Shown one piece after another: positions 8,341 to 58,416 of a stretch of DNA of 64,000 nucleotides (position 1 is its first letter; the number at the start of each line of letters is the position of its first letter). The notes beneath the pieces were generated by a model that saw nothing but the letters and a program-made list of their open reading frames with translations, had not been told where the DNA came from and searched no databases. This DNA comes from Cordylochernes scorpioides (Eukaryota): assembly GCA_030710605.1 (NCBI GenBank), contig CP092864.1, forward strand, positions 139,359,418-139,423,417, read 5' to 3'. Position numbers and translations under genes: made by a program.

Positions 8341-8444
8341 ATACAGTAGAACACCTCTTTGTAAAGGAAAACACCTAGTTGCTGGGCCAAAGTGTCCTTT
8401 AGGGTGAGGTGTGCTCCAATGGAAAAGTTTCTTTTTAGTAAAAA
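8341..8444. mobile_element. MITE-2 left half, a duplicate of 8848-8951
   Basis: 104 bp identical to the start of the full copy downstream. The two are separated by the Helitron-like element. Confidence 0.6.
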
Positions 8445-10058: not shown

Positions 10059-10061
10059 CTA

Positions 10062-14402: not shown

Positions 14403-14960
14403 ACTAGACGAATGACCCGGGCAACGCCCGGGATTATTCGATTAAATGTTTTATTCAAACACTATGCGTTATAATTATAAATTTGGCGCCGTGGATGTCA
14501 CTCTTGTGAAACGTCCCGTCCAAACTTTACATGTACATTAGGTCAGCTGATATTACCTCCCATCTTCACCGCTAGAGGCGCTTCTCGCGAGCAAAAGGGC
14601 AAACTCGACGAATATTCGGGAAAGAGACCTGAAAATTTCACTAGAAGTTTTTCCAGATTCTACTCTATATACTGTTAAAATTTCAGTCAGATTAGTTACG
14701 ATATAAATCTTCAAATCGAGCGAGCGTCTATAAATATTTCGATTTAGATCAACTATTCTAAATATTAAGCGAACTATTATTAAGAAACCTTTTTAGAAGA
14801 TTTCAATTTTAAATGTATTTATAACCTTGATAGAGGGCGCTGTTCGTGAGCTAAGTAGAATAATTTGAATATACAGTTTTAATATTTAATTTATATATAA
14901 TTTAAAATAACCTATCGTTTTCCTCGTATTTTTTTTTTTTACCTATGTATGGAAATTTAG
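14403..14960 (-). mobile_element. Helitron-like element, family B-type, divergent or truncated
   Basis: CTAGacgaatgacccgggcaacgcccgggattattcgattaaatg terminus. The body shares '…ttggcgccgtggatgtca…' and 'tagagggcgctgttcgtgagctaagtagaataatttgaatat…' with the other copies. Confidence 0.45.
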
Positions 14961-18595: not shown

Positions 18596-18951
18596 CTTCT
18601 TCTTCTTTCTTATCTCCACTCAATCATATCAGGTTATCAAGCTTGTAGAGCTTGAAACTTGACAACCACCATGACTGGGTGAAGTAGAATGCGTCTGCCT
18701 TTGTCATTAAGACTGGGAGCACTACTCAGTGGCAGGCCGACTTAGCTCCAAAAGAAATGGCCGCCTCTGACATGAGGAACAGACGCCATGTGCAGCCGCT
18801 CCTAACATGGAGTACAAACGCTGCTCATCCTGTATCCCTGGATTAGGAGCCCTTACAGGGTACTATCAGCCGGACCAGCTGAACCCAGGTTTTTTAGTGA
18901 GCTTGTTACTGCTCCCCCTCCTCCTTTTTCATCCGGGCTTGGGACCGGCAA
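18596..18951 (-). mobile_element. SINE-1 full copy
   Basis: Same consensus as 25-392. It ends 'ccgggcttgggaccggcaa' at 18951. Confidence 0.7.
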
Positions 18952-19864: not shown

Positions 19865-20625
19865 AAAATGTATCCACCTAAAACCGGTACAATTTCACAT
19901 TTGTACTATTTTTTCACATTAAAGAAGTGTTGTTCTCAAAGGGAGGTCTGAAATAGGTAATTTTTTTTTGTTGCTTATCCCAAGTACACGTGGTACAGGC
20001 CATGATAATCATGGTGGGTAGAAGTACCTAAACCCAGTACAATTTCACATTTGTACTATTTTTTTCACATTAAAGAAGTGTTGTTCTCAAAGGGAGGTCT
20101 GAAATAGGTAGTTTTTTTTTTGCTTATTCCTAGTACACGTGGTACAGGCCATGATAATCATGGTGGGTAGAAGTACCTAAACCCAGTACAATTTCACAAT
20201 TGTACTATTTTTTTCACATTAAAGAAGTGTTGTTCTCAAAGGGTGGTCTGAAATAGGTAGTTTTTTTTTGCTTATTCCTAGTACACGTGGTACAGGCCAT
20301 GATAATCATGGTGGGTAGAAGTACCTAAACCCAGTGCAATTTCACATTTGTACTATTTTTTTCACATTAAAGAAGTGTTGTTCTCAAAGGGAGGCCTGAA
20401 ATAGGTAGTTTTTTTTTGCTTATTCCTAGTACACGTGGTACAGGCCATGATAATCATGGTGGGTAGAAGTACCTAAACCCAGTACAATTTCACATTTGTA
20501 CTATTTTTTCACATTAAAGAAGTGTTGTTCTCAAAGGGTGGTCTGAAATAGGTAGTTTTTTTTTTGCTTATTCCTAGTACACGTGGTACAGGCCATGATA
20601 ATCATGGTGGGTAGAAGTAGGCGAA
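19865..20625. repeat. Satellite, ~127-bp unit × 6, derived from a SINE-2 3' end plus flanking sequence
   Basis: Each unit contains the reverse complement of 'ctacccaccatgattatcatggcctgtaccacgtgtactagg' and 'gggataagcaaaaaaaa'. Confidence 0.85.
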
Positions 20626-26143: not shown

Positions 26144-26243
26144 CTTCAAGAGGTCTATGACATCCTGACCAGCCTTTTCATCGACATTGAAGAACTCAAG
26201 AAAGACCATTCCATAATCCTCACTTCACCCTATGACAATAAAG
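26144..26243 (+). CDS. STX1: syntaxin-1-like exon (Habc region: LQEVYDILTSLFIDIEELKKDHSIILTSPYDNK)
   Basis: Acceptor tttgcag|ctt at 26143, donor aaa g|gtaggt at 26244. 'EELKKDHSIILTSPYDNK' aligns with syntaxin-1 'EEVKRKHSAILASPNPDEK'. The exon ends in phase 1, matching the next exon. Confidence 0.7.
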
Positions 26244-26469
26244 GTAGGTTCCTCTCTTCCCTGCACTCACTAATCAAGAAATTGTTGTTGATGTTCCTTT
26301 TCTTTTTCTAAAATGATTAAAAACTACAATAAAATCCCTCTATAGTGAACCCCAATGGGAGTGAACCTCTAGTTCACTATAGCCATGGTTTGTAATAGCC
26401 ATAGTTCACCGTATTATAAAATGAGGATTATTTCAGGTTTGGTAAAGCCCCTCTATGGCCAATAGCCAT

Positions 26470-26565
26470 TTCTATGCATGTTGGAGCTCGAAGAGCATGA
26501 ACTCATGGAGAATTTGTGTTATCTTCAAACAAGGGGATAAGAAACATGGTTCACATCGTTATAGC
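26470..26565 (+). mobile_element. LINE-a 3' fragment
   Basis: …ggagctcgaagagcatgaactcatggagaatttgtgttatcttcaaacaaggggataagaaac. Confidence 0.5.
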
Positions 26566-26756
26566 CATAGTTCACTGCATTTTAAAATAAACATGGGGAT
26601 TATATCAAACATATATAAAATGGACTTATTTTTGTGAATTTTTGGGTGTTTTAGAGCATACTTACTAAAATATCAGGTGTATGTCGTTCAGCATAACCTT
26701 CTAAAGAGATAGCGCAGAGAGAAAGGCACACACAAGAGAATAAATTAATACAAAGT

Positions 26757-27072
26757 CTTCTTCTTCTTCTTTCTTATCTCCACACTGGGTGAAGTAGAAT
26801 GTGTCTGCCTTTGTCATTAAGACTGGGAGCACTACTCAGTGGCAGGCCGACTTAGCTCCAAAAGAAATGGCCGCCTCTGACATGAGGAACAGACGCCATA
26901 TGCAGCTGCTCCTAACATGGAGTACAAACACTGCTCATCCTTTATCCCTGGATTAGGAGCCCTTACAGGGTACTATCAGCCGGGCCAGCTGAGCCCAGGT
27001 TTTTTAGTGAGCTTGTTACTGCTCCCCCTCCTCCTTTTTCATCTGGGCTTGGGACCGGCAAAGGCGGAGTTA
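26757..27072 (-). mobile_element. SINE-1 copy, short-tail variant
   Basis: tcttcttcttctttcttatctccacactgggtgaag… through …gggaccggcaaaggcggagtta. Confidence 0.65.
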
Positions 27073-27763
27073 ATACAAAGTAATAACGCGTCACTATATA
27101 TAACGAATGAAGACATTATTTAAATGTAATTCTACTATCCTAAAAGCTTATATCCATAGTTTGCTTAAATACCATTTCTAAGATTCCACCCTTCAGCGCA
27201 GCATATAAAAGCAAAATGATCCAATACAGTATTGGTGCTCTAAAGAAGCGGTCTGGTAGATTAAAAAAAAAAAAAATTGGCAAAATCACTAGGAGGGTTC
27301 ACCACTGATGAGCCAAGCTCTCCTAATATTTTTCATCGCAGTAAGGACAGTAAAAGTTTGATTTATGTATGAAAAGAAACATTTGCATCTTAATGTCTTC
27401 AAGAGAATAAATGATCATTATAAAGCATCAATGCCACAAAATCTTGATTTTTTAGATGAAAAGTCAAACCCTAGAACAAATACGCCATTGGACATCATGT
27501 TGACATCAGCAGCTGTAGATTCCTCCATTGTACAAGCCGGCCCAACTTGATACAGCAAATGTCTGACAACAACCTCAGGTAGGGAAGTTGAATCAGGAGG
27601 AAGGAGCGTGGAGACAATGGAGGTGTTGGTTGGGTCAGCTCCCCCATACCAATTAAGAATTTCATCACAGAGTTGAAATACTTCCTCCCACATATCATTA
27701 TTTTTGGTGGTGGTGGTGGTCATTGAATCACACTTCTTTCTTCCCCTTCCCCCTTTAAGGAAT

Positions 27764-28165
27764 TCTATATACTGTTACGAGTGTCATGCGTTCTTAATAA
27801 TTTTTCATCTCTGTCACCGTTTGCTTTTTTTTGGAATGGCGCTCTTCTATTGGTTGGCTACGATCACGCCACCTTTGCCCCCCCCCCCACTCGCTTCTTC
27901 GTTTTTGTAACTATTGTGTTGGAGCGGGTCGCTCCTTAAATAAATGCATATATTAGTTAATAACTAAATGGAATCCTCTCTTTCTTTTTCCCAGTAAGAG
28001 ACGCCTACGGAAGCCAACAGTACATAGACAGATAAAGCACATAGGCTATAGTTATTAACTAACATATGCATTTATTTAAGGCGCCAAATTATAATTGTAA
28101 CAAATAGTATTTGAATCAAAACATTCAATCGGGTAAAACACGGGCGTTGCCCGGGTCATTCGGCT
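27764..28165 (+). mobile_element. Helitron-like element, family X, + orientation
   Basis: Reverse complement of the 10062-10470 copy. It ends …cgggcgttgcccgggtcattcggCTAG|T at 28165. Confidence 0.6.
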
Positions 28166-28345
28166 AGTGTGAAGAGAAGAGAGATTAAGGTTGAAACTAC
28201 TTTATTACAATCCATATAAGTTTAAATATAAAATACTGAATATAAATAAGGCTAAATAATGATAAATATATGGATAAAATAAATATAAATGTATAAGGTA
28301 ATTTATAAATATACATATACAGTTATTTAAGAGGCGTAATATTCT

Positions 28346-28547
28346 TTTTAAAATAAAACAATTTCTACTGTCCTTACTGCGATGGAAAAATTAAAGGGAG
28401 GGCCTGGCTCATCAGTGGTGAACCCTCCCAGCGGTTTCGCCAGTTTAAACTGGCGAAACCGCTGGGAGGGTTCACCACTGATGAGCCAGGCCCTCCCTTT
28501 AATTTTTCCATCGCAGTAAGGACAGTAGAAATTGTTTTATTTTAAAA
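28346..28547. repeat. Perfect ~200-bp palindrome (P1 family), centre at 28446/28447 in 'cagtttaaactg'
   Basis: Arms 'aaacaatttctactgtccttactgcgatggaaaaattaaagggagggcctggctcatcagtggtgaaccctcccagcggtttcgccagttt' read identically on both strands. Confidence 0.8.
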
Positions 28548-28615
28548 AGAATATTACGCCTCTTAAATAGTTTTATAATTTGATAACAGATGGCGCTCTA
28601 GTACATCGTAATACA

Positions 28616-28797
28616 TATACAGTAGAACCTCCATGATAGGACACTCATGCTAGAGAACACCTCTCTATAAAGGACAGTTTTCACTTGCAAAATTACCATT
28701 TTTACAACTTAGCAACTCCCCGGTAAGAGGACACTTCTCCCTAAAGGACACTTTAGCTCTTCAATTATGTGTCCTTTACAGGGAGGTTCAACTGTAT
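28616..28797. mobile_element. MITE-2 full copy
   Basis: Both TIRs present. Confidence 0.7.
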
Positions 28798-29046
28798 CTA
28801 TAATTATATAAAAGTTCTTCATTGGTGGCCCCCCACTGCAGGAAAGATACCACCACCGCAGAGTTCTTTCCCCACAAAGTGGGCAAGTCGATGTGATGGC
28901 TGGCGTTACTCACCTCAAGACCAAGATGGTACTTGTAGAGAGAGAGAGAGCACTATGACTTTATTTTAAGTTATTCCTATTAAAGAAATAAGATTTTTAT
29001 CTTTAGAGCTATCAAGGGTTACTATTTTTAAAATAATTGTTTTTAT

Positions 29047-29372
29047 TTGTGTTGGGGGGGGGGGGGTCAGTGGAAGGCTGGTTAAACCGTTTGGTTTTCG
29101 ACCACTACGACCCGGGTTCGATTCCCGCATTGGACACTTTTTTCTGTTTAAAAAAAAAAAAATGCTCCAATGGCCCCCCCGATTCTTGCAAAAGTCCAAC
29201 CCCACCAGCGAGTGCAAGTAACCAAACGGGGCTCTGGCACATTTGTAAGTGCAAAGTCGAACTGCTTTTCACATGTGTAGACATGTGGTGCGCTTACAGT
29301 AAAAAGCAGTCGCTAACTACCCACCATGATTATCATGGCCTGTACCACGTGTACTAGGGATAAGCAAAAAAA
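29047..29372 (+). mobile_element. SINE-2 full copy (tRNA-like head plus body plus 'gggataagcaaaaaaaa' tail)
   Basis: The head 'gggtcagtggaaggctggttaaaccgtttggttttcgaccactacgacccgGGTTCGATTCCcgcattgg' has box-B-like GGTTCGATTCC, which indicates tRNA derivation. The tail is poly-A. Confidence 0.7.
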
Positions 29373-29509
29373 ATTGTGTTGGGAAAAAAATGACGCTTTT
29401 CAATCTCATTCGTCTCTTTTGAGTTATTATATAGAAGTTATTTTGAGAGATGCAGGAAAAGAATCATGGAAGTAATACATTTATTTGGAAGAGCAGATAG
29501 TCTTCTTCT

Positions 29510-29872
29510 TCTTCTTTCTTATCTCCACTCAATCATATTAGGGTATCAAGTTGTGACCCTTGATGGTATTTGACAACCATCATGTCTGGGTGAAGTAGGA
29601 TGCGTCTGCCTTTGTCATTAAGACTGGGAGCACTACTCAGTGGCAGGCCGACTTAGCTCCGAAAGAAATGGCCGCCTCAGTCATGAGGAACAGACGCCAT
29701 GTGCAGCCGCTCCTAACAAGGAGTACAAACGCTGCTCATCCTGTATCCCTGGATTAGGAGCCCTTACAGGGTACTATCAGCCGGGCCAGCTGAACCCAGG
29801 TTTTTTAGTGAGCTTGTTACTGCTCTCCCTCCTCCTTTTTCATCCGGGCTTGGGACCGGCAAAGGCGGAGTT
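29510..29872 (-). mobile_element. SINE-1 full copy
   Basis: Consensus match along the full length. Confidence 0.7.
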
Positions 29873-30059
29873 AGAGCAGATAGTAGAGTGTGGTAACAGT
29901 GGTTTGGTCTTGATGATGGAGATCTCCTTGTAGTGAAGCCACTGAGGTTGTTGAGAGGATCTTCTTACATGTTCACACCATTGCCCACACTGGGATGTTG
30001 TCCCTGAGTCAACAGCCTAGTCACAAATATATTTCTCTGTCTCTATGATAAACATGATA

Positions 30060-30365
30060 GACCCCCCCTAGTACACATGGTCCAGGCTATGATAATCATC
30101 TTCTTCTTCTTTCTTATCTCCACTCAATCACACTAAGGTATCAAGCTTGTAAAGCTTGAGATATGATAATCATGTTGGGTAGTAGTTGGCAACTGCTTTT
30201 ACTGTAAGTGTACCACATGTCTATACATGGGAAAAGCAGTTTGACTTTTGCGCTTATAAGTATGCTGGAATCCCGTTTGGTTACTTACACTTGCTGGTGG
30301 AGTTGGACTGTACAAGAATCAGGGGCCATTGGAGCATATTTTTTTTTATCAGAAAAAAGTTCTCA
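30060..30365 (-). mobile_element. SINE-2 copy carrying an inserted SINE-1 tail fragment (30090-30160)
   Basis: Reverse complement of the SINE-2 3' region, interrupted by 'cttcttcttctttcttatctccactcaatcacactaaggtatcaagc…'. Confidence 0.55.
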
Positions 30366-30419
30366 ATGCAAGATTCTCATGGAATATTATAGTTACTACG
30401 TATATAACATCTCTATGAT

Positions 30420-30545
30420 AAGGTACAATTTGGATTATAGATTAGAAACATATGTAACTAAAGTACTTTTGTCTGATGATGGTAACAATGCTGTTACCGA
30501 AACGTCACACACTATTTATTTGGATTTGGCCTTTTTACCTATGTT
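30420..30545. mobile_element. MITE-1 partial copy
   Basis: ggtacaatttggattatagattagaaacatatgtaact…ctgatgatggtaacaatgctgttaccgaaacgtcacacactatttatttggatttggcc. Confidence 0.55.
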
Positions 30546-30774
30546 TCAAACCCTCAAATAAATAAAGAGCCCGTATATAAAGGTAATATTCTGAGGAAAA
30601 CAAAATTAACAAGTCTGTTGATTAAAGCTTCCTGTTGCAACATCATGCTCTCTTCCTGACTCCAGTTTATCTGTGCTGTGGTTTCCATCTCAAGTTTTAC
30701 AAATTGATGAGACACAAGAGTTTCCATTTCCCCCATTGTTGCTTACATTCAACTGGATAGAAACTCCACCTTTG

Positions 30775-31165
30775 CTGGTCCCAAGCCCAGATCAAAAAGG
30801 AGGAAGGGGAGCAGTAACAAACCCACTAAAAAACCTGGACTCAGCTGGCCCGGTTGATAGTGCCCTGTAAGGGCTCCTGATCTAGGGATACAGGATGAGC
30901 AGTGTCTGTACTCCATGTTAGGAGCGGCTATATCCTGTATCCCTGGATCAAAAGCCCTTACAAGGTACAGGATGAGCAGCGTCTGTACTCCATGTTAAGA
31001 ACAGTTATACTTTGCGTCTGTTCCTCAAATCAGAGGTGGCCATTTCATATTGGAGCTAAGTCAGCCAACTAATAAGTAGTGCTCCCAGTCTTAATGACAA
31101 AGGCAGACACAATATAGCTTGATACCCTAATATGATTGTTGAGTGGATAAGAAGGAAGAAGTACA
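30775..31165 (+). mobile_element. SINE-1 copy with an internal ~60-bp duplication (30900-30990)
   Basis: 'ggatacaggatgagcag.gtctgtactccatgttag' occurs twice. Confidence 0.6.
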
Positions 31166-31589
31166 GGTTAGAAACTCCTGGTGGCTTCCTCGTTGTCCTT
31201 TTGGTTGGGTCAGTTTTGTACTGGTGGTTGGTCAAATAGGAGATTATTTTCTAAGATTTGTAACTCCTGAGATCATGTGACATGGGCAGGAAGTAGGTCT
31301 CCCGATAAACCTTGTTGAATGATTCAGTGAGAACTTGTGGGAAATCCCATCCATAATTCAACAAACCTTCCGGTTGTGTCAAATACAAGCTGTGAACTCA
31401 TTACATGTCATTTCAATACCTTTGTTCTGTAAACTTCCTGCACAATTCCCACTGACTCTCAATTAAACTCACTGTGGGGAGGAGATGATTAATCTTATTG
31501 CTTATTTTTTTCTATACTCTCCTAATTTGACTTACAATAACTGAAATTACTACTTTTCACATGTGTAGACATGGTGCGTGTACAGTAAA

Positions 31590-32280
31590 AACAGTCACCT
31601 ACTTTTATCCACCGTGATTATCATGGCCTGTACCATATTTGTGTGTATTAGGGATAATAATAAAAAATAGTAATAACTGAAATGGGCATGTGTCAAAATA
31701 AGCAGTCGCCAACTACCCACCATGATTATCATGGCCACATGTACTATGGATAATAATAAAAAATAGTAATAACTGAAATGGGCATGTGTCAAAATAAGCA
31801 GTCGCCAACTACCCACCATGATTATCATGGCCACATGTACTATGGATAATAAGAAAAATAGTAATAACTGAAATGGGCATGTGTCAAAATAAGCAGTCGC
31901 CAACTACCCACCATGATTATCATGGCCACATGTACTATGGATAATAAGAAAAATAGTAATAACTGAAATGGGCATGTGTCAAAATAAGCAGTCGCCAACT
32001 TCCCACCATGATTATCATGGCCACATGTACTATGGATAATAAGAAAAATAGTAATAACTGAAATGGGCATGTGTCAAAATAAGCAGTCGCCAACTACCCA
32101 CCATGATTATCATGGCCACATGTACTATGGATAATAAGAAAAATAGTAATAACTGAAATGGGCATGTGTCAAAATAAGCAGTCGCCAACTTCCCACCATG
32201 ATTATCATGGCCTGTACCACATGTACTATGGATAATAAGAAAAATAAAATAACTGAAATGGGCATGTGTCAAAATAAATA
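31590..32280. repeat. Satellite, ~121-bp unit × ~5.5, derived from the SINE-2 3' region
   Basis: Unit 'aaaaatagtaataactgaaatgggcatgtgtcaaaataagcagtcgccaactacccaccatgattatcatggccacatgtactatggataataag'. It causes the spurious overlapping ORFs at 31595-32272. Confidence 0.85.
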
Positions 32281-32496
32281 GTCGCCAATTATTTGTAGAA
32301 GGAGCATGGGAATATCAGAACCTTGTGGCACATGGTTTGCCATGGATCAAGAAATGCCAGGATGCTCAATCACCTCACAATGCTCTGAAGATTTTACCAT
32401 ACACAAAAAGAGAAATCGAATTTCAAAATCTCAAAAGAGATGAAATAATCTCAATAGAACTAGGCATATATCAATTTGTTTCAAGTCTCCCTGTAA

Positions 32497-32665
32497 CCTC
32501 CCTGTAAAGGACACCAAATTGTGGAGTAAAAGTGTCCTTTAAGGAGAGGTGTCCTCTTACCGGAGAGTTGTTAAATAGTAAAAATGGTAATTTTGATAAT
32601 GAAAACTCTCCTTTGTAGAGAGGTGTCCTCTAGCTGGAGTGTCCTCTCATGGAGGTTCTACTGTT
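32497..32665. mobile_element. MITE-2 copy, left end truncated
   Basis: cctccctgtaaaggacaccaaattgtggagtaaaagtgtcctttaaggagaggtgtcctcttaccgg… through …catggaggttctactgt. Confidence 0.6.
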
Positions 32666-32699
32666 TATGTAAAAAGAAACACATTTCCAAAAAAATAAT

Positions 32700-33050
32700 T
32701 TTTACAAATTTTTAAACACAAGGTAATAAGACCAAATCCAAATAAATAAATAGTGTGTGACGTTTCGGTAACAGCGTTGTTACCATCTTCAGACAAAAGT
32801 GCTGAATGAGAAAAAATATCATAGCATGTTTTAAATAGTTACTGTTATCAAGTGAATATATTACACATGATATATTTACTTATATACACTTATATTCACT
32901 TGATAACAGTAACTATTTAAAACATGCTGCGATATTTTTTCTCATTCAGTACTTTTGTCTGAAGATGGTAGCAATTCTGTTACCAAAATGTCACACACTA
33001 TTCATTTATTTGGATTTGGTCTTTTATTACCTTGTGTTTATAAATTTATA
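32700..33050. mobile_element. MITE-1 full copy with a ~150-bp palindromic internal insert (32815-32945)
   Basis: Arms are at 32705-32810 and 32945-33045. The internal 'atcatagcatgttttaaatagttactgttatcaagtgaatata…' is itself a palindrome. Confidence 0.7.
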
Positions 33051-33384
33051 TACACAAAAAAAATCCTTTAATTTTAAATTATCCCTATATATAGGATGGA
33101 TTTTATTTAATTCAAAGAAAGAGGTTAGATAAGCAGAGAGAGAGCTGTTAAATAATCAATGAGAGGGAATCACATAAAGGATTTCCATGTTTCCATCCTT
33201 TAAGTAACGGTCAGTGTCACAAGGAGCAACAACAATGGAGTTATTGCACATCTCCAGTAAATCATCTCTTTGTCCCACATACTCTGGTACCTTCATTTAC
33301 CTCACAGTTCTGAAGATCATTGGAAGTTGATTCAGAGAAAAACAGCCACATCAAACAATCTTACCTCACATTGCCATTATTATT

Positions 33385-33530
33385 TTGGGACTTGAAATAG
33401 GTTCGTTATTTTAAAAATCGCAAAGTTCATTATAACGATGGTATTTTCAATGGAATGGAATTGGGAATCACCTTAGGTTTTTTATAAGGGAAGGTTCACT
33501 ATACCAAGGTTTTACTGTATTTACAAATTA
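33385..33530. repeat. Second copy of the 'gttcgttata' family
   Basis: Colinear with 17810-17990. Confidence 0.5.
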
Positions 33531-34152
33531 TTTGTATCAGACGAATCCCACTGGGTGTCGTCTGGTTCAATGTCACATTCTGCCTTGAAGTCGGACAGGT
33601 CTAGATCGGAGTCCTTGTCCCCGACATGGGCGATTGCCATGTCAAGGAATTTCTTCAGAGTAGAACTCTGCTCGGACGAGAGAAACTCGAGAGAGAGAGA
33701 TTGACACAAAAGTTTAAATTATTAACATACAAAGTGTGTGACTGCTAGAATGGAAATAATGATAGAGGAAAACCATTGTCTCTTTGTCACACCATCCATT
33801 TCCCTAAGAAGTTATAAAATAATTATGGCCGAATAAAATTGGACAATATATTTTTATTGAATTTGACTTTCTTTTAATAAATGCTTAGAGCCTAAAAGTT
33901 TCTGTTTGTGGAAACTGAAGTTTCCTAAATTTGCTGCCTTTAAGGACACCACAATATATTACAGTATAATCTCTTTAATTCAAAATTTACCTTAATTCAA
34001 CACTTACTTTAGTTCAATCATTTTTTTATTTTTCAAATTGCAATCAGCCTATTTACTTTAGTTTAACCACCTATAATTAAATACCAACTTTAATTCAACT
34101 ATTTTTCTTAGTCCCAATCAGCCTATTTAGTTTAATTCAACCACTCAACACT

Positions 34153-34408
34153 TGCCGGTCCCAAGCCCGGATGAAGAAGGAGGAGGGAGAGCAGTAACAA
34201 GCTCGCTAAAAAACCTGGGCTCAGCTGGCCCAGCTGATAGTACTTTGTAAGGGCTCCTAATCCAGGGATACAGGATAAGCAGCGTTTGTACTCCATGTTA
34301 GGAGCGGCAGCTTCACTTGGCGTATGTTCCTCATGTCAGAGGTGGCCATTTCTTTTGGAGCTAAGTCGGCAATTTCACCCAATCATGAAGTTAAGAAAGA
34401 AGAAGAAG
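34153..34408 (+). mobile_element. SINE-1 copy, internally deleted, adjacent to the minisatellite
   Basis: The head 'ttgccggtcccaagcccggatgaagaaggaggagggagagcagtaac…' runs to 'gaagttaagaaagaagaagaag'. Confidence 0.6.
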
Positions 34409-34950
34409 ACTCAACACTGACTTTAATTCAACCACCTATAACTCAACACTGACTTTAATTCAACCACTTATAACTCAACACTGACTTTAATTCAACCACC
34501 TATAACTCAACACTGACTTTAATTCAACCACCTATAACTCAACACTGACTTTAATTCAACCACCTATAACTCAACACTGACTTTAATTCAACCACCTATA
34601 ACTCAACACTGACTTTAATTCAACCACCTATAACTCAACACTGACTTTAATTCAACCACCTATAACTCAACACTGACTTTAATTCAACCACCTATAACTC
34701 AACACTGACTTTAATTCAACCACCTATAACTCAACACTGACTTTAATTCAACCACCTATAACTCAACACTGACTTTAATTCAACCACCTATAACTCAACA
34801 CTGACTTTAATTCAACCACTTATAACTCAACACTGACTTTAATTCAACCACCTATAACTCAACACTGACTTTAATTCAACCACCTATAACTCAACACTGT
34901 CTTTAATTCAACCACCTATAACTCAACACTGACTTTAATTCAACCAATTT
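34395..34950. repeat. Minisatellite, 31-bp unit 'tcaacactgactttaattcaaccacctataac' × ~18
   Basis: Strictly contiguous units with occasional single-base variants. It is embedded in a 'ttaattcaac' MITE-family element (33960-35040). Confidence 0.9.
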
Positions 34951-35529
34951 TTCACTTACCAATTAGCCTTTTTACTTAAGTTCAACCAACTATTAAAGCA
35001 ACCAAAAATTGGGATCCCATGGGATGTTGAATTAAAGGAGTTGGAGAGACTGTATACATCTACAGAGTATAAGAGAAAAAGACTGATGATCCTTGAGTAG
35101 AGAAACATCTACAAACACATAATTGTATAAAGTAATGGCAGGTATGTTGCATTCTATGTCGCTGACGGGGAAAGTTAAATAAAGAGATGATGAGAGAGTG
35201 GCCAGCCATTTAGAATTGGCTTCCAGGGTCACGCCGTCAGGCTGCTGAGGTGGAGGAAGTTGGTTGACTCATTCAAGGTTTCCCACTCTGGGAATTTCTT
35301 CTGACTGACAACTACCTGTTGTTGTGACTACACTTAGTGCATGTGAGAAATGGTCTGCCCTGTTCATTTAAATAACTCTGAGGAATGTGCTCTATAGCCT
35401 AAACTTGATCCTTTTTTCAAGTCCAATTCTCTTACTTTCCAACTTCTACATCTGCTGCTTCTAAAAACATTGTAGCAAATTACACATGACTAAAAATATA
35501 TTTTGAGAAATCCTTTTTTTTTTTAATAA

Positions 35530-35835
35530 ACTAGCCGAATGACCCGGGCAACGCCCGGGTTTTACCCGATTAAATACTTTTATTCAAATACTATTCGTTA
35601 CAATTATAAATTGGCGCCGTGGATGTCATTCTTGTATAATATATAAATGAGTTTTAAAAATTGTAAAAAAATGCATCGGCCGGGAATTGAACCCGGACTG
35701 CCCTCGTGGCAGGCAAGCATTCTACCACTGAACCACCGATGGTTATGAGAAATGGCCATATTTGGGTATTTATTCCATTCACAAAGCAAACGGTGACAGA
35801 ATTGATTAAGAAAGAATTGATTATGACGCTGATAA
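35530..35835 (-). mobile_element. Helitron-like element, tRNA-Gly-carrying variant
   Basis: CTAGccgaatgacccgggcaacgcccgggttttacccgatt terminus at 35530. The internal family-X segment is replaced by '…ggcgccgtggatgtcattcttgtataatatataaatgagttttaaaaattgtaaaaaaa' plus the tRNA-Gly-like copy. It then rejoins 'caaacggtgacagaattgatta…gacgctgataactgtatat'. Confidence 0.55.
35672..35743 (-). pseudogene. tRNA-Gly(GCC)-like copy inside a Helitron-like element, acceptor stem degenerate
   Basis: Reverse complement is accatcggtggttcagtggtagaatgcttgcctGCCacgagggcagtccgggttcaattcccggccgatgca. The 5' end CCATCGG fails to pair with the 3' end at position 1. Confidence 0.55.
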
Positions 35836-36232
35836 CTGTATATATTAATACTCTAATGAATGTATCACAGTTAATAGATTTTTTAAAAAGTATCCTTGCA
35901 ATACACTTGAATCTCTCTGTAACAACATCACTTGGGACCAATACACTCGAGGACATAACTGAAGAATCTGTTCCTTTTAGCACATATATCAGGATTCAGA
36001 CAATAACTGAAAAATGTTTGGTACAAAGTGACCTTTATTGAAGACACATGAGATAACCAATGTGAACAAAATTGCCTGTCTCCTTAAAAAAATAGATGAC
36101 AGGTGGCATCAAAGACTTTCCACTTCTTCAAGTTTTGTCCGTGAGTGTATTTTATTTTGTTATAAACAACATTAGTTATTAAAGAGGTTTTATAAGGACT
36201 TCGATATATATATATATATTGTTTTGAAAATA

Positions 36233-37098
36233 GAGCAATCCATACTTAATTCATTAGATAATAAATGGCATATATTGGATTTAATAAAATATTTATTTTG
36301 CCAATATTTCGGCTGGCTGAACGCCAACCTTTATCGAGGCATTACATTTTTGTATACACAAACTCAGCGCCGCATAGTGTTATAATATCACAGTTGAAAT
36401 CAATTAAAATACAGAGTAGGTGGAAGAAAATTTGTGTATGAAAAAATTATTATAAAAAATGCAATCAAAAATGTAAAATATCTTAAAATATAAAAGGAAA
36501 AAAAGTTCTATCTTATATTTAAAAAATTGTAATAAGTACATAAAATAATTCATTAATAACTCATAAAGAGATAAATGTAAAAATGTGTGTATCTATTAAA
36601 ACATTTGAAAATAAATTTTAAATGATTTAAACAATAAACTGTAAGAACCTTATAAAAAGTTTTTAAATACCCACATTTTTAAAAACTTTTTATAAGGTTC
36701 TTACAGTTTATTGTTTAAATCATTTAAAATTTATTTTCAAATGTTTTAATAGATACACACATTTTTACATTTATCTCTTTATGAGTTATTAATGAATTAT
36801 TTTATGTACTTATTACAATTTTTTAAATATAAGATAGAACTTTTTTTCCTTTTATATTTTAAGATATTTTACATTTTTGATTGCATTTTTTATAATAATT
36901 TTTTCATACACAAATTTTCTTCCACCTACTCTGTATTTTAATTGATTTCAACTGTGATATTATAACACTATGCGGCGCTGAGTTTGTGTATACAAAAATG
37001 TAATGCCTCGATAAAGGTTGGCGTTCAGCCAGCCGAAATATTGGCAAAATAAATATTTTATTAAATCCAATATATGCCATTTATTATCTAATATATAT
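36233..37098. repeat. Giant near-perfect palindrome (about 430-bp arms, about 9-nt centre 'tacccacat' at about 36672)
   Basis: I checked the right arm against the reverse complement of the left arm at several points (36300-36660 vs 36680-37040). The left arm at 36210-36400 is homologous to 46205-46400. Confidence 0.8.
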
Positions 37099-37099
37099 A

Positions 37100-37437
37100 T
37101 ATATTAAAAATAAAAAAGGCATCTCCTGACCACGAGCACATGTGCTTTTTATAAATTTGGCCTTAAATACCCATTTTCTGATTTCTCAGGAAGCCATTGG
37201 GACCAAAAATCTTTTTTGGTCGCAGTTGTTACAGCCTTCTCCACGCTGACGAGCGCCAACAGCGCGAAACGCGTTCGTGGATGGCTTTTCTTGATAAATC
37301 AAGAAATTGGGTTGGCCAAATATCACGGAGCAAGCTAAATAAACGTTTAGTTTATTTTTGCTCCACTAGATGGCGCTCTGCCATCTAAAAAGCACATGTG
37401 CTCGTGGTCAGGAGATGCCTTTTTTATTTTTAATATC
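37100..37437. mobile_element. TIR-MITE (~50-bp TIR 'atattaaaaataaaaaaggcatctcctgaccacgagcacatgtgcttttt')
   Basis: The TIRs at 37100-37150 and 37388-37437 are reverse complements. Related 'aggcatctcctgat…' ends occur at 52885-52960, 55610-55680, 59340-59400 and 59790-59880. Confidence 0.65.
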
Positions 37438-37494
37438 AACACCTGATCCACTTATCTTTAATTTTTTCTATTGTTTTTTCATATATATATATAT

Positions 37495-37785
37495 ATATAG
37501 ATGGAAAATTTCCCGAGAGGAAATTGATCCATAGAAGCATAGGGCGCCTCTCCCGTCAAAATAAACGTCAAAACCTGACGCCATCTATTGACCGTTGCCG
37601 CAACTAGTGGCCTCGGGTCGGTGACAAAGCCACAACACCAGCTTTGGCAAACTGAGAAGTGTCCACCTAGAGACCATGGTTTCGGGCTAATGGCCCTCGT
37701 CATGGCGCCTCGTCGTTGACTTTTATTTTGACGGGAGAAGCGCCCTATGCTTCTATGAATCAATTTCCTCCCAGCAAATTTTCCA
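37495..37785. mobile_element. Foldback element P2 (~75-bp TIRs 'agatggaaaatttcccgagaggaaattgatccatagaagcatagggcgcctctcccgtcaaaataaacgtcaa')
   Basis: Inverted arms at 37497-37570 and 37712-37785. Relatives are at 62895-63110, 56580-56690 and 4690-4790. Confidence 0.65.
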
Positions 37786-37830
37786 TCTATATTCTAGCCA
37801 TAGATTAATCTATATTCTAGCCATAGATTA

Positions 37831-38075
37831 AGACTGGGAGCACCACTCAGTGGCAGGCCGACTTGGCTCCAAAAGAAATGGCCGCATCTGACATGAGGAA
37901 CAGACGCCTTGTGAAGCCTCTCCTAACATGGAGTATAGACCCATCCTGTATCCCTGGATCAGGAGCCATTACAGGGTACTATCAGCCAAGCCAGCTGTGC
38001 CCAGGTTTTTAGCAAGCTTGTTACTTACTGCTCCCCCTCCTCCTTTTTCATCCGGGCTCAGGACTGGTAAAGGCA
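37831..38075 (-). mobile_element. SINE-1 copy lacking the 3' tail part
   Basis: It starts within 'agactgggagcaccactcagtggcaggccgact…'. Confidence 0.6.
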
Positions 38076-38224
38076 GAGTTATATATTATACTAGATGGGT
38101 GACCCGGGCTTCGCCCCGGGATTGACCTGTGTGCATATCTACCCGAGTGATATATATTTAGATAAGATTTTTTTTTATAATTGTTTGTTATTAGCATTAT
38201 CTATTTATTTGCATCAGAATAATT

Positions 38225-38425
38225 TAATCTAATCTTTTATAGAGGGCGCTGTTCGTGAGCTAAGTAGAATAATTTGAATATATAGTTTTAATAATTGATT
38301 TATATATTTTTTAAATAGCCTATCGTCTTCCCCATATTTTTTTACCTATGTATGGAAATTTTGGTTTGAATTAGTGAACTACTGCGAATTTGTATACCGG
38401 ACATACAAACAAACAAACATTGATT
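38225..38425 (-). mobile_element. Helitron-like family B fragment (5'-terminal part)
   Basis: Shares 'tagagggcgctgttcgtgagctaagtagaataatttgaatat…ccg.acatacaaacaaacaaacattgatttatatat' with the 6716-6928 copy. Confidence 0.45.
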
Positions 38426-38439
38426 TATATATTATTACT

Positions 38440-38865
38440 AGCCGAATGGCCCGGGCAACGCCCGTGTTTTACCCGATTGAATGTTTTTATTCAAATACTA
38501 TTTGTTACAATTATAAATTGGCGCCTTAAATAAATGCATATATTAGTTAATAACTATAGCCTATGTGCTTTATCTGTCTATGTACTGTTGGCTTCCGTAG
38601 GCGTCTCATACTGGGAAAAGGAAAGAGAGGATTCCATTTAGTTATTAACTAATATATGCATTTATTTAAAGAGCGACCCGCTCCAAAACAATAGTTACAA
38701 AAACGAAAGAGCGAGTGGGGGAGGCATGATGGGGGGGGCGAGGGCAAAGGTGGTGTGATCGTAGCCAACCAATAGGAGTGCGCCATTCCAAAAAAAAAAG
38801 CAAAAGATGACAGAGACGACTGATGAGGAATGACGCTCGTAACTGTATATAGAATTACTATATGA
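38440..38865 (-). mobile_element. Helitron-like element, family X
   Basis: CTAGccgaatggcccgggcaacgcccgtg… through …gacgctcgtaactgtatatagaat. It lies directly adjacent to the previous fragment. Confidence 0.6.
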
Positions 38866-39342
38866 GTAATAATGGTTAAAGAAGGCAAATTTATCCCATT
38901 AAAAGAAATAAAATCACGGCACTTTTTGAATTTGTCAATTGGTTCTGACAGAATCAGATTATTTTGAATATGCTGCCCAACCAGCTTCAAGAAAATAATT
39001 TTGAAAAAGCTATGGTGTTGTGAATGAGCTATGCCATTAATAATAAAGTAAAATTAGGTTTTAATGAGATCCTATGGGACAATATATACGGATCATCCAA
39101 ATCTGCTAAAAATATATTTCAGCACACCAAAAATCTTATGAAATTCTAAGGGAAAATACATGTACTTAATATGGATCGAGGGCTATCCAGCTTTTTTCTC
39201 TCTCTCTCTATATATAATCTTATTTATTCATATTTTTATTTATTCTGTATTTAACCTTATATAATCTTATATGGACGTTTAAATAAATCAGTTTCAATCT
39301 CAATCTCTCTCTCTCTCTCCCTCTCTTTTTTTTTTCTTTTAT

Positions 39343-39590
39343 TAACCCTTAGTACACATGGTACAGGCCATGATAATCATGGCGGGTAGAAGTTGGCGAC
39401 TGCTTTTACTGTAAATATGCTACATTTCTGCACATATAGAAAGCAGTTTGACTTTTGCACTTACAAATGTGTTAGAGCCCCGTTTGGTTACTTGCACACA
39501 ATGGTGTTCTTGAACTTTCACAAGAATCGGGAGCCATTGGGGAGCAATTTTTTATTCGGAAAAAAGAAGAGCCCAATGCAGGATTTGACC
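39343..39590 (-). mobile_element. SINE-2 copy (3' two-thirds)
   Basis: Reverse complement of '…gctccccaatggctcccgattcttgtgaaagttcaag… ctacccgccatgattatcatggcctgtaccatgtgtactaaggg'. Confidence 0.6.
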
Positions 39591-39691
39591 CTGAGTTGTT
39601 GCTGTTAGAAAGTTTTTACCATTCGTTGAATGAATCTATTGAGCCCAGCAGAGTCCATCAGTGTTGTGAGACCTTCCTTCTAATGTTCCAG

Positions 39692-39766
39692 AGACCGAGG
39701 CCAAGGTGGACGAGCTGATGCAGGACTTCAAGGTCAGGTCAAAGAAGGTGAAGACCAAGTTAAAAG
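39692..39766 (+). CDS. STX1: syntaxin-1-like exon (…TEAKVDELMQDFKVRSKKVKTKLK)
   Basis: Acceptor tgttccag|ag at 39691, donor aaaag|gtgagt at 39767. The peptide aligns with syntaxin-1 '[25 protein letters not shown]'. Phase is consistent with the flanking exons. Confidence 0.75.
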
Positions 39767-39889
39767 GTGAGTAGTTGATCCATTCTTTCTTTTCCACTTA
39801 ACTTCACCCTCTCGCTGATTAACATGATTGTTTAAAAGGCATTGTCCTTTTATTTATGAGTCTTATATCCATTGTTTTGCCAACCTATA

Positions 39890-40265
39890 TACTCAGAGAT
39901 GGCTAAACCTGACACCTCTACATCTCAAATTTTTGTATCAATTGACTAAGAGGGTCAATAAAATATTCTTGAATTGTCAATTGTCTACATCTCAAATTTT
40001 TGTATCAATTGACTAAGAGGGTCAATAAAATATTCTTGAATTGTCAATTGTCTACATCTCAAATTTTTGTATCAATTGACTAAGAGGGTCAATAAAATAT
40101 TCTTGAATTGTCAATTGTCTACATCTCAAATTTTTGTATCAATTGACTAAGAGGGTCAATAAAATATTTTTGAATTGTCAATTGTCTACATCTCAAATTT
40201 TTGTATCAATTGACTAAGAGGGTCAATAAAATATTTTTGAATTGTCAATTGTCTACATCTCAAAT
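39890..40265. repeat. Tandem repeat, ~61-bp unit × 6 ('tctacatctcaaatttttgtatcaattgactaagagggtcaataaaatattcttgaattgtcaattg')
   Basis: Near-identical units about 120 bp downstream of syntaxin exon 3. Confidence 0.85.
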
Positions 40266-46139: not shown

Positions 46140-46420
46140 ACAATATCATATTAGTACTATTTATTTTAATGCTTATAAGGCTATTTTACAAATTTTAACA
46201 TAAATAATGGTTCTGAAAATAGAGCAATCCATATTTAAATCTTTAGATCATAAAAAGGCGTATAGTGGATTAAATAAAAGATTTATTTGCTAATATTTCG
46301 GTTGGCTAAACGCCAACCTTTGTCAAGACATTACTACATTTTGTATAAACAAACTAAGCGCTGCATAGTGTTATAATATCACAGTTTAAATAATAGTTTG
46401 ATTTTTTTTAAAGGCAATCC
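46140..46420. repeat. Single-arm copy of the giant-palindrome family, abutting the mariner-2 TIR
   Basis: '…aatagagcaatccatatttaaatctttagat…ttgctaatatttcggttggctaaacgccaacctttgtcaagacattac…cgctgcatagtgttataatatcacag…' versus 36215-36400. Confidence 0.55.
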
Positions 46421-46427
46421 ATTGAAT

Positions 46428-47776
46428 ATACAAGGTGTGTCCAATAAATAATGAGACCGGTCAAAAATAGAAAGCTTCAGCTACACTGCGGTATATCACA
46501 TCACGTTATTGCGCGCGCAGTCGATAAATTGTAAGCTTGTAAAAAGAACGCCTTGCATAACAACTTCTAATTTGTAATGGATAGAAAATTCGAACAACGA
46601 ATTTGTATTAAATTTTGCTACAAAATTGGGAAATCAGCTTCAGAAACTTTAGATTTGTTGAAATTGGCATTTGGAAAGGAAAATGTAAATAAGCCCACCA
46701 CATTTAGATGGTTTTCACGATTTAAAAAAGGAATGGAATCGGTGAAAGATGAGAAGCGTGTTGAACGTCCATTTCTGCACAGGAACCCTGAAAAGGTGAG
46801 CCAAATTTCAAATTTTATAAAAGATAATCCACGAATAGGGTTACGGGACATTGAGGAAGAAACAGGGATATCAAAATCATTAGTTGGATCGATAATTAAA
46901 GAAGACACCTTCAAAATTTATCCCTAAAATGCTCACAATCCAACAAAAGGAGAATCACGTTGAAGTTGCCAAAAAAATGCTTGAAATGGTGGAAGAAAAC
47001 CCTAATTGGAAGGAAAAAGTAATAACTGGAGACGAGACATGGGTTTACGGGTATGACCCGGAAACAAAACGCCAATCCATGGAGTGGAAAGGAAAATATG
47101 AAACAAGAACGAAGAAATCCCGACTTTGCAAGTCAAAAAACAAAGTCTTATTGGTCACGTTCTTTGACATAAAGGGAATTGTGCATTATGAATATCTAAC
47201 AGAGCTCCAACATCGGGTCGCTCGAATCAGCTTCCGCCTTTTTTTAGGCATTACTCGGCCGAGTCCGTTTAAATCAGCCCTGCCAGGCTCCTAGAGGAAG
47301 GTCAAACAATCAATAAGGAGTCTTATTTAAACATTATGAGACGTGTACATGAATCAATTCGTCTGAAAAGAAGTGAAATGTGGAGTTAAAAATTGGATTA
47401 TCCATCATGATAATGCACCACCACACACCGCTACATCTGTACTGACTTATTTGGCTAAACACGGCATCCAAATACAACAACCTCCCTATTCCCCAGACCT
47501 AGCTCCAAATGATTTTTTTCTCTTTCCAAAACTCAAAATGGCTCTAAAAGGAAGGAGATTTGACACTAGAGTCCATCATAGCGGATTCGAAAAAGGTCTT
47601 GAAGAACATCCTGAAAGATGCCTTTTATAAATGTTTTAAATCATGGGAGAAGAGATGGAAATTATGTATAGATGCGGGAGGGGACTATTTTGAAAAATAC
47701 TAATAAAATTTTTTTTATCATTCTATTTTTTCTTTATTTTTGACCAGTCTCATTATTTATTGGACACACCTTGTAT
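46428..47776 (+). mobile_element. Tc1/mariner-superfamily DNA transposon (second family), defective
   Basis: About 40-bp TIRs: tacaaggtgtgtccaataaataatgagaccggtcaaaaata (46429-46469) and its reverse complement (47735-47775). TA is at both junctions. Confidence 0.8.
46577..47630 (+). pseudogene. mariner-like transposase, split over three frames (ORFs 46577-46927, 46929-47294, 47373-47630)
   Basis: Peptides 'ITGDETWV', 'HHDNAPPH', 'PPYSPDLAPNDFFLFPKLK' are typical of the mariner/HTH_48+DDE_3 type. Frameshifts and stops separate the ORFs. Confidence 0.8.
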
Positions 47777-50895: not shown

Positions 50896-50966
50896 GCATC
50901 CGTGGTTCAGTGGTAGAATGCTCGCCTGCCACGCGGGCAATCCGGGTTCGATTCCCGGCCGATGCA
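50896..50966 (+). tRNA. tRNA-Gly (anticodon GCC), near-canonical, embedded in a Helitron-like repeat
   Basis: gcatccgtggttcagtggtagaatgctcgcctGCCacgcgggcaatccgggttcgattcccggccgatgca. It is close to the canonical eukaryotic tRNA-Gly-GCC. The D-arm and T-arm (GGTTCGATTCC) are intact, with one acceptor-stem mismatch (C6:C67). An oligo-T follows immediately. Confidence 0.65.
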
Positions 50967-54179: not shown

Positions 54180-54320
54180 TCAAATATTATCTCTACTATT
54201 ATCTCCACAGACCTTACTGCAATGATATGAGTTATTGAATGAGAGGGCTTGGTTCATCAGTAGTGAACCCTCTCAGCGGTTTCGCCAAATTAATCTCTAT
54301 TTATCTCTAATATATCTCTA
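54180..54320. mobile_element. P1-family half copy
   Basis: ctccacagaccttactgcaatgatatgagttattgaatgagagggcttggttcatcagtagtgaaccctctcagcggtttcgccaaattaatc. Confidence 0.45.
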
Positions 54321-55185: not shown

Positions 55186-55890
55186 CTCTTTGTTAGGGTC
55201 GCAGCGGACAAATGGTCTAAACCGTTGGTTCCCACAGTTCAACTGGTTCACAACTTCTATCTCTTTGTGCAAAAATATACAAATGTGAAATTGTACTGGG
55301 ATAAGATGCATAAATTAAGAAAAAGGCATCTTCTTATAATGCAACTGAAAGTTCTGTCGGAATTTATCCACCATATCCCAGTACAATTTCACATTTTTTG
55401 CGTTCTCACGTTCTTCTGGCCTTAACTACCTGTTTCATGATTTTTCAGGATGCCTTAATGACCAGTTTTTGGTCATTGAGGTACAGCTTGCACCACACTG
55501 ACGAGGGCCAACAGCCTGAAACCCATATATGGTTAGCTTTTCTTGGTTAATCAAGAATGAGTATTTGGCCAATTGTGTAATAATTAAAAATCAACGAATA
55601 GTTGATATTTATTCTGGCAGATGGCACAAGCCATCAGCAATTTTAAGTTGCACGATAAAGAGATGCCTTTTTTTCTTATTTTTATCTCTCTGTTTACTTT
55701 CTCCTTGTCTTTTTTCAACACTTTCCTTGAATCAACTAATTTATTAGCTTTTCTCTGAATTATTCTCTACACTTTTTCTCTTACAAAGGTGATGAGGGCT
55801 CTGCTAACATCTCGTGGTGTGAAATTCTCTATTATTCCCATGGATGGTTGTTTGTACACAGCTGAAACAGAGTGTTGTACCTGTGTGCAG

Positions 55891-56246: not shown

Positions 56247-57839
56247 TTTTTATATATTTTATTTTTTGTTTTGTTTGAGGTAGGTAAAAAGTAAAAAAAA
56301 AGCTTCCGACTCCTACTAATCTATAGAAAATGTGGGACAAGCTATTTGGTCCCCTTAATATATTAGAAATTATTTTATTTATTGCAGTTTTTTTTTTTTA
56401 TTTCCCCGTATTTGATTTGTGAACAAGAAATGTGAAGCTGATGCATTTTTTTCAGCACACTTTTGTTAGTCCATAATCAAACTCTTAACTTTACCAGTAA
56501 TATCCCTTTTATAAATATTTATTTTATTAAAAAAAAAAAAAAAGGTAAATCTCCCATGATAATAGATACTAATGTCAAAGCTAAACCCCATCTATTGACC
56601 GTCGCCGCAAACTAGCGGCCTCAGGCATCCTTTGTCTTTTTAGATCAATATCCTCCCAGGAAAATTTCCATATATATATATATATCGTAATTTAAACAAT
56701 GTGATATGTAAATAATAAAGTATGACGTCCTTTCTAGTCATCTCAAAGTGACACCAGCTTGCGACCTGACACCTGGGGGATCCAGGTGGGGGAAAAAAGG
56801 GCGTTGGTCCAGATGTTGACAGTTAGTCAACATACAGGGGATATTTTCGGACAGCCTCGCTCAGTGGTACGCCATCATCATCTCATGACGGTCCCAGCAG
56901 CTTCAGGCTGGACGCCGAGCTTTTCCACAGTTAATTCTCAACTTTCCCCTGGCCCTGGTGCCACGTGAGACGTACTAGGAGAGCGTCTTTTGATCCCAAA
57001 CTTTGTCGTTACTGTCCCGTGCGGACTTCCCACTCTGGACACCTTGCCACTCAACCCCGACTGCTTCCAACTCACTGGTTGTCTTACCCAGGTTTACGAA
57101 ATATATATATTTCAATTCTTTCTCCTTTAGTTTCTTTTTTCATATTGCAGCCTTTTGAAGGACATATTATCCGAAAGCTCGCCAAGCTTACACCTCTTCA
57201 ATAAGGAAACTAGTTACTTTTACCTTTGGTCTCTTCCTAGCAATGGTACCCTGCGATTCCTCTCTCTCTCTCATACGAATCCTACTCAAAACCTTCAAGA
57301 CCCTGCTGAAAAATCAGCAAAAGAATCAAAGGAGGTGGTGGTGTCTTGTCCAATCATGGAAAGGGGAGTGCCATTGCCCCATTAGTCAGCCACATTTAAG
57401 AGTTCCCTGTTCACAGTTACCGTAGCAGCTTGGGGTTCACGGCACTGTACTTTGCCCTATAGGGCAGGCACTTACTTGTGCTGCTTCTCCCGCCTGCCAA
57501 GGAGGGGTTGGACTTCTGGGGAGCAAAAGAATCAATGACAAACATTTCAATTTTGAGCCTGAGGCAGACAACAAGCATGCAAATTCTTGCCACAATTGGG
57601 CTGATTGCCTGGAGCAGGAAGACCAGCTTTTCTCTCTCTCCTTTTGGAATTAGGCCCTATGTATTGACATCGCTCCAACCTAGCTGACTGACTGCAGTCT
57701 TCTAGATGGGGCAAAGCCTGTCAACTCATGTTATCTAGTTTTTGTGTCTTTTTTGATAGGAGATTTATTTTTCCTCTCTTTTCAATTATTGATTTTTCTC
57801 TCCAGGAAAAAAAATCATCTCTATTCGGTCATAATATTT

Positions 57840-57959: not shown

Positions 57960-58245
57960 CCCGATTAAATGCTTTTATTCAAATACTATTCGTTACAATT
58001 ATAAATTGGCACCGTGGATGTCATTCTTGTATAATATATAAATGAGTTTTAAAAATTGTAAAAAAAAAAAAAATGCATCGGCCGGGAATCAAACCCGGGC
58101 CGCCCGCGTGGCAGGCGAGCATTCTACCACTGAACCACCAATGGTTATGAGAAATGGCCATATTTGGGTATTTATTCCATTCACAAAAGCAAACGGTGAC
58201 AGAATTGATTACGAAAGAATTGATTATGACGCTGATAACTGTATT
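57960..58245 (-). mobile_element. Helitron-like tRNA-Gly-carrying variant, 3'-truncated (no CTAG or hairpin)
   Basis: It starts 'cccgattaaatgcttttattcaaatactattcgttacaattataaattggcaccgtggatgtcattc…' and is colinear with 35569-35835. It abuts a SINE-2 tail at 57958. Confidence 0.5.
58074..58145 (-). pseudogene. tRNA-Gly(GCC)-like copy inside a Helitron-like element, acceptor stem degenerate
   Basis: Reverse complement is ccattggtggttcagtggtagaatgctcgcctGCCacgcgggcggcccgggtttgattcccggccgatgca. It has an A-run (oligo-T on the - strand) after the 3' end. Confidence 0.55.
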
Positions 58246-58416
58246 ATACTTAATAATAAAGTCTCTGAAATGTTTGCCTAATGGAGATGTGACATGTCAT
58301 CTCATGGCTTATTGGATCTCCCTAGCTACTACCAGCTGTCAGAGTTGGTGGTATCTAGGAGTTAAACACGTGGATCTACTCTCACTTTGATAAACTGACT
58401 GTCTTCTGTGTGCCAG

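Follow-up and report, generated by a model that had tools for sequence, protein, structure and literature searches.

[quoted passage not shown] The primate template-switch events described with this model were filtered and are short, in the range of tens of bp (PMC5453318). In human, the palindromes PATRR11, PATRR22 and PATRR17 are near-perfect structures unrelated to transposons, with a size of about 190-600 bp (PMC1851657, PMC4940405). They have no spacer, PATRR11 and PATRR22 exceed 90% AT (PMC4940405), and PATRR17 lies in an intron of NF1. In Drosophila, hpRNA loci are young inverted duplications (PMC10317233, PMC10292708). Finally, long inverted arms separated by a short loop are found in foldback (FB-like) elements and in long-TIR MITEs.

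Here we describe a palindrome located in an intron of the pseudoscorpion Cordylochernes scorpioides, within 64,000 nucleotides of contig CP092864.1 (assembly GCA_030710605.1) that were analyzed as a whole and are called the window below (Table 1). It measures 840 bp and its two strands read identically, as both the repeat search of the window and a direct string comparison agree. The string comparison did not reveal any mismatch between the arms, which are 100% reverse-complementary over 415 nt, and complementarity is lost abruptly beyond the arm ends on both outer sides. The k-mers AAGTTTTTAAATACCCACATTTTTAAAAACTT and CCATTTATTATCTAATATATAT mark the centre and the outer junction, respectively. 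An earlier reading of this DNA, termed here the sequence-only reading, had announced a long perfect palindrome with a very short spacer and had seen no mismatches at the points that it checked. Both observations hold, the second one along the full length of the arms. The limits then given (36233-37098, about 865 bp, with arms of about 430 bp and a gap of about 9 nt) were too generous, positions 36233-36252 being flanking sequence.

Among the inverted repeats of the 64-kb window, the palindrome is the longest. Folded as single-stranded DNA, it forms a single hairpin without interruption, of -460.8 kcal/mol (-73 +/- 5 for shuffled sequences), and the RNA of the sense strand also gives one uninterrupted hairpin, of -630 kcal/mol (-134 for shuffles). 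Such a length, together with a DNA folding energy far below that of the shuffles, excludes a chance origin. The palindrome is also AT-rich (77.6%, the average of the window being 64%), with an AT content of 68.2% in the outer 148 nt of the arms and of 83.1% in the inner 267 nt. In the left arm, the outer 148 nt belong to a dispersed repeat that we call R, and the AT-rich inner 267 nt are unique within the window.

Table 1. Position of the palindrome, of repeat R and of the surrounding features, in window coordinates
Feature	Position	Strand	Description
Left arm	36253-36667	+	415 nt; putative original copy, from 100% complementarity and from continuity with the left flank, which the paralogous R copy also shows
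Centre (spacer)	36668-36677		10 nt, asymmetric, TACCCACATT; hairpin loop
Right arm	36678-37092	-	415 nt; putative inverted copy; ends directly at (AT)7
Repeat R, copy 1	36222-36400	+	dispersed repeat, about 180 bp; extends across the left arm boundary at 36252/36253; 85% identical to 46210-46391
Repeat R, copy 2	46210-46391	+	solo, no inverted partner; 37 bp upstream of the mariner 46428-47776
(TA)8 tract	36204-36219		just left of repeat R
(AT)7 tract	37091-37104		at the outer end of the right arm, where rejoining or a second switch is proposed; also TA target of the adjacent MITE
MITE	37101-37436		336 bp, 51-nt perfect TIRs; flanks compatible with a TA (or TTAA) target duplication; partial relative at 55417-55557
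(AT)9.5 tract	37481-37499		abuts the foldback-type MITE
Foldback-type MITE	37495-37792		298 bp; 77-nt arms at 92%; 144-nt loop; partial relatives at 62901-63093 and 56571-56677
Syntaxin intron	26244-39691	+	13,448 bp; holds the palindrome and both MITEs; canonical splice sites
Exon upstream of the intron	26144-26243	+	...KKDHSIILTSPYDNK; also given as ...EELKKDHSIILTSPYDNK
Exon downstream of the intron	39692-39767	+	ETEAKVDELMQDFKVRSKKVKTKLK

The palindrome had been placed inside a syntaxin intron, and the structure of the gene bears this out, the two bordering exons having AG/GT borders and joining in frame into a continuous reading frame. Further syntaxin exons follow collinearly on the + strand at about 54.6, 55.9, 58.4, 62.0 and 63.6 kb. 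The corresponding syntaxin-1-like gene (26144-63673, +) is unusually divergent, since its concatenated exons display at most 57% identity to any protein in a collection of 5.8 billion sequences. It is not among the matches to the annotated C. scorpioides proteome, and could be a paralogue that is unannotated or evolves fast.

The sole sequence of the 64-kb window similar to the palindrome is the second copy of R, a partial match on the + strand. One arm had previously been described as homologous to 46140-46420, beside a mariner. This homology is real but narrower, since it links 36222-36400 to 46210-46391, with 85% identity and in this single orientation. The mariner itself (46428-47776, 1.35 kb) possesses 42-nt TIRs and the Pfam domains HTH_48 and Transposase_1. 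Degenerate frameshifted transposase genes are present at three places in the window, at 5286-6324 (-), 11328-12964 (+) and 46428-47776 (+); two of them are mariners (HTH_48 and Transposase_1) and one is of the piggyBac type (DDE_Tnp_1_7).

Global alignment showed that the homology of R, the limits of which are defined from the two R copies only, extends leftward past the arm boundary by at least 28 bp (25 identical positions out of 28) and stops 267 bp short of the palindrome centre. As R both crosses the boundary and stops before the centre, the arm ends match no end of a repeat unit. Since the inner arm is in addition unique in the window, the duplicated segment is an arbitrary slice of DNA. 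At the boundary, the left arm passes into its flank without a break, in agreement with the paralogous R copy, whereas the right arm stops at the corresponding point, is devoid of the 28-31 nt of R present beyond the end of the left arm, and abuts the (AT)7 tract. The left arm is thus the source and the right arm a derived inverted copy. The duplication would also be much younger than R, the arms being 100% identical and the R copies only 85%. With no difference over 415 nt, the 95% upper bound for the divergence of the arms is 0.7%, and the earlier remark that such palindromes are usually young probably applies here. Part of this perfect identity could nevertheless come from consensus polishing or from gene conversion between the arms.

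The sequence-only reading made the palindrome a member of a foldback family, and a transposon origin does carry a high prior, as the window holds several true foldback families. The palindrome would then be a low-copy, non-autonomous foldback DNA transposon with long TIRs, inserted in a (TA)n tract, with a true left end near 36222, a right arm deprived of its terminal 31 bp or so, and a truncated solo arm in the form of the 46.2-kb sequence. The tracts (TA)8 and (AT)7 that border the locus are the remnant expected from an insertion into one TA microsatellite, and the adjacent MITEs indicate that TA-targeting elements were active at this place. A target duplication of 2 bp (TA or AT), being self-complementary, would merge with the arms and stay hidden within them. 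Foldback or hairpin elements in many copies moreover abound in the window, and one of their families comprises both a perfect spacer-less palindrome of 246 bp (28324-28569) and solo arms.

However, two extra events would be needed to obtain the present structure from such an element, namely the loss of exactly the last 31 bp or so of the right arm, as far as the (AT)n tract, and the truncation of the 46.2-kb copy at 46391. In foldback transposons the termini coincide with the ends of homology, whereas the arm end observed here is no homology boundary. The present left and right ends do not share any terminal inverted repeat beyond the arms themselves, and the arms are not flanked by any direct repeat reaching 3 bp (the sequence is ...CTTAATTC before the left arm and ATATATAT after the right one). 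Instead of the tandem sub-repeats of Drosophila FB-type elements, TRF detected in the arms only weak arrays with periods of 11 nt and 22 nt and 1.9 copies. Within the 64-kb window, neither another copy of the same structure nor a second copy of the inner 267 bp was found, and homology to the inner arm does not resume past the mariner, from 47777 onwards (score of 13, for a shuffled mean of 14.9). The public collections scanned, in which arachnids are barely covered, gave no matches either: the core of R and the palindrome centre yielded 0 matches among metagenome and viral contigs, and the 58-aa ORF of the arm, used as a query for homologues, produced no candidate in a public protein collection. 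For the three window ORFs located in or near the palindrome, there is no exact protein on record. We thus consider a foldback or long-TIR element an unlikely origin, and membership of a foldback family is not supported, the relative being solo and in a single orientation, with a homology that crosses the arm boundary and ends before the centre.

The 246-bp palindrome at 28324-28569 lies in the same intron and is 100% self-reverse-complementary, with 123-nt arms and no spacer. Its family includes a palindromic copy with the same centre at 7494-7707 (about 73% identity) as well as single-arm copies that end at or near this centre, at 27274-27378, beside an A/T run, and at 54201-54296. The palindromes of this family have the appearance of head-to-head dimers, the unit of which would measure about 125 bp. 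Another abundant hairpin/foldback family (190-300 bp, with 85-133-nt arms and 20-34-nt loops) is represented at 9838-10071, 14095-14284 and 32728-33023 and by more than 40 related matches; it is unrelated to the 840-bp palindrome.

We rather propose that the palindrome is a recent local inverted duplication, produced by snap-back or template-switch synthesis from the left arm, and not a mobile foldback element. In our judgement this proposal has somewhat better than even chances of being right. A slice of 415 bp of the intron, composed of the 3' 148 bp of R and of 267 bp of unique AT-rich DNA, would have been copied as its reverse complement beside itself, which would give the layout source, 10-nt centre and inverted copy. 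The most economical ancestral state would be flank-B-centre-(TA)n. The process could have started from a double-strand break or from a stalled fork, located within the (TA)n tract or beside it, the break being possibly caused by the cleavage of a cruciform or by the excision of a TA-targeting element. A 3' end would then have turned back on itself through a short inverted repeat located at the present centre and copied its own (or the complementary) strand backwards over 415 nt. Rejoining or a switch back would have followed at 37093, within the (AT)n tract. Such a course of events would be of type '3-2-1-4' in the four-point notation.

Perfect arms around a short non-palindromic centre are indeed the signature expected from fold-back priming on a short inverted repeat. 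Like the known template-switch or snap-back duplications (including quasipalindrome mutations of the Ripley type), the palindrome displays an inverted copy beside its source, a source arm in its ancestral context and a junction in a simple AT repeat. The outer junction (...CTAAT/ATAT...) permits 2 nt of AT microhomology, and up to 9 nt are permitted at the centre; this is compatible with template switching, although not diagnostic of it, and the central seed inverted repeat would be indistinguishable from the copied arms. Some differences must be mentioned. The tracts catalogued for template-switch mutations are typically of tens of bp, and 415 nt, which is far more, would be at the long end for snap-back synthesis. 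The palindromes of gene amplification are of chromosome scale, whereas the present one is interstitial and small.

Two other origins were considered and rejected. Nested self-insertion of a transposon does not agree with arms made of an arbitrary slice of R and unique DNA. Hairpin opening of the hAT type leaves P-nucleotide additions of a few nt, which are too short in comparison with 415 nt.

The inverted copy could also have arisen outside the animal, through in-vitro template switching during whole-genome amplification, chimeric or foldback long reads, or gap filling, in which case the genome would contain the left arm only. The sequence-only reading had warned that palindromes are often assembly artefacts, and this warning is appropriate here. 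Whole-genome amplification has been documented to put inverted duplications into assemblies (PMC6218980), and low-input methods are plausible for animals as tiny as pseudoscorpions. Libraries of genomic DNA sequenced with ONT contain about 0.6% of foldback reads (PMC12870357), and the 2021 draft of C. scorpioides was built with MaSuRCA, SSPACE and GapFiller (PMC8136511). The absolute identity of the arms is also what an artefact would give. On the other hand, a foldback read would run on as the reverse complement of everything upstream, whereas the inverted copy ends after 415 nt and gives way to new sequence, and both flanks are collinear with the ordered exons of the syntaxin gene. A simple foldback-read artefact is therefore unlikely, and the consensus would have to support two chimeric junctions. 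PacBio HiFi data are virtually free of foldback reads (PMC12870357). The 64-kb window does not contain any Ns despite its dense repeats, which suggests a long-read consensus. To our knowledge, the 10-nt centre matches neither the SMRTbell nor the Tn5 adapter sequences. Altogether, we regard an artefact of the assembly or of the library as decidedly improbable.

As the sequence-only reading had noted, the palindrome adjoins two further inverted-repeat elements, so that three such structures are consecutive. From the palindrome rightward, the order is (AT)7, the 336-bp MITE, 58 bp, (AT)9.5 and the 298-bp foldback-type MITE. Both neighbours had been recognized for what they are, a 338-bp TIR-MITE at 37100-37437 and a 290-bp foldback at 37495-37785, and only their limits had to be corrected (Table 1). 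Tracts of at least six TA units number 6 in the 64 kb, and 3 of them fall within 1.3 kb at this place, where they border the inverted-repeat elements. A plausible view is that this cluster of (TA)n tracts represents a hot spot for breakage or insertion.

Several other repeats surround these elements. An exact 23-bp tandem duplication (two copies of ATCTATATTCTAGCCATAGATTA, 37785-37830) extends across the right end of the foldback-type MITE and its flank. A 64-nt motif starting with ACTAGCCGAATGACCCGGGCAACGCCCGGG is present at 35530-35593, 38437-38500, 10060-10124, 28105-28168, 8444-8507 and 14403-14464, and two of its copies flank the palindrome and the MITE cluster as direct repeats, 92% identical and 2.9 kb apart. 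The reverse complement of this motif displays a GC hairpin, CCCGGGC-GTT-GCCCGGG, followed by ...CTAGT, and we take it to resemble a Helitron 3' end. Young tandem arrays are found at 34409-34946 (offset of 32 bp, about 17 units that are 98-99% identical), 39917-40265 (offset of 67 bp), 19876-20619 (about 150 bp) and 31644-32288 (about 96 bp); the first one shares the intron of the palindrome and the second one lies just past the next exon.

The window also contains, at about 17 sites, its most abundant SINE-like repeat, of about 250 bp and with 82-88% identity between copies, for instance at 37827-38080, 18706-18951, 26816-27072, 29617-29873 and 60457-60716. A profile of its ORF matched 37 proteins, 35 of which are from C. 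scorpioides and include the N-termini of the models GFER, RNF168, DAB2IP, UGP2 and ATP5I. These matches suggest that coding exons were annotated over SINE sequence in this genome. Rfam tRNA matches of 45-60 bits were obtained at 35672-35742 (-), 50896-50966 (+) and 58074-58144 (-). They belong to a repeated unit, as 35700-35850 is 95% identical to 58102-58255, and thus correspond to heads of tRNA-derived SINEs and not to tRNA genes. One of these heads sits about 500 bp to the left of the 840-bp palindrome.

A parallel can be drawn with the human PATRRs. Like them, the palindrome is near-perfect, extends over several hundred bp, becomes richer in AT towards its centre and is predicted to form a cruciform, and its intronic location recalls that of PATRR17. 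It differs from them by its length, by an AT content of 78% (83% in the inner arms) and by the presence of a 10-nt spacer. Inverted repeats whose arms are of such length and identity, with a spacer of about 12 bp between them, cause fork stalling and breakage in yeast and primate cells (PMC7999016). By analogy, the formation of a hairpin or cruciform and the stalling of replication are to be expected at this palindrome as well. The term fragile-site-like cluster, applied to the locus by the sequence-only reading, would likewise be carried over from yeast and from the human PATRRs.

The comparison with the hpRNA loci of Drosophila is based on an arm length of about 400 bp, on the youth of the inverted duplication and on a potential single-hairpin transcript. 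The palindrome lies on the transcribed strand of the intron, and a perfect dsRNA hairpin of 415 bp would be expected each time the syntaxin pre-mRNA is transcribed, by analogy with these loci. One could therefore imagine a functional locus of this kind, in which the intronic transcript would form a 415-bp dsRNA, Dicer would convert it into siRNAs directed against the R family or other targets, and the palindrome would be retained. The stability of the sense-strand hairpin, far beyond that of shuffled sequences, and the youth of the Drosophila loci would agree with this scenario. The latter, however, come from the duplication of genes, whereas intronic non-coding DNA is concerned here and the hairpin is predicted from its folding potential. 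No target gene can be identified for the arms, which are for the most part unique, AT-rich and non-coding, and youth alone explains their perfect identity. We therefore hold a functional hpRNA-like role to be extremely unlikely.

A more far-reaching view would be that the palindrome is real, newborn and segregating, and that it combines two roles, as a hot spot of PATRR-like breakage in an arachnid genome and as a proto-hpRNA, the intron of a neuronal SNARE gene delivering long perfect dsRNA. This combination appears very unlikely to us. If it were nonetheless true, the locus would offer a snapshot of template switching in the act of making hairpin-RNA loci de novo.

Taken for itself, the palindrome is a curiosity and points to no new type of element or mechanism. 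If it is real, it would represent a clean natural example of a long, perfect palindrome with a short spacer caught soon after its birth, the polarity of which can be read thanks to a paralogous repeat. Such palindromes are strongly destabilizing in yeast and human cells, provide raw material for hairpin-RNA genes and are under-represented in assemblies. The birth of palindromes, their persistence and the fidelity of their assembly in arthropod genomes could be studied on this locus.
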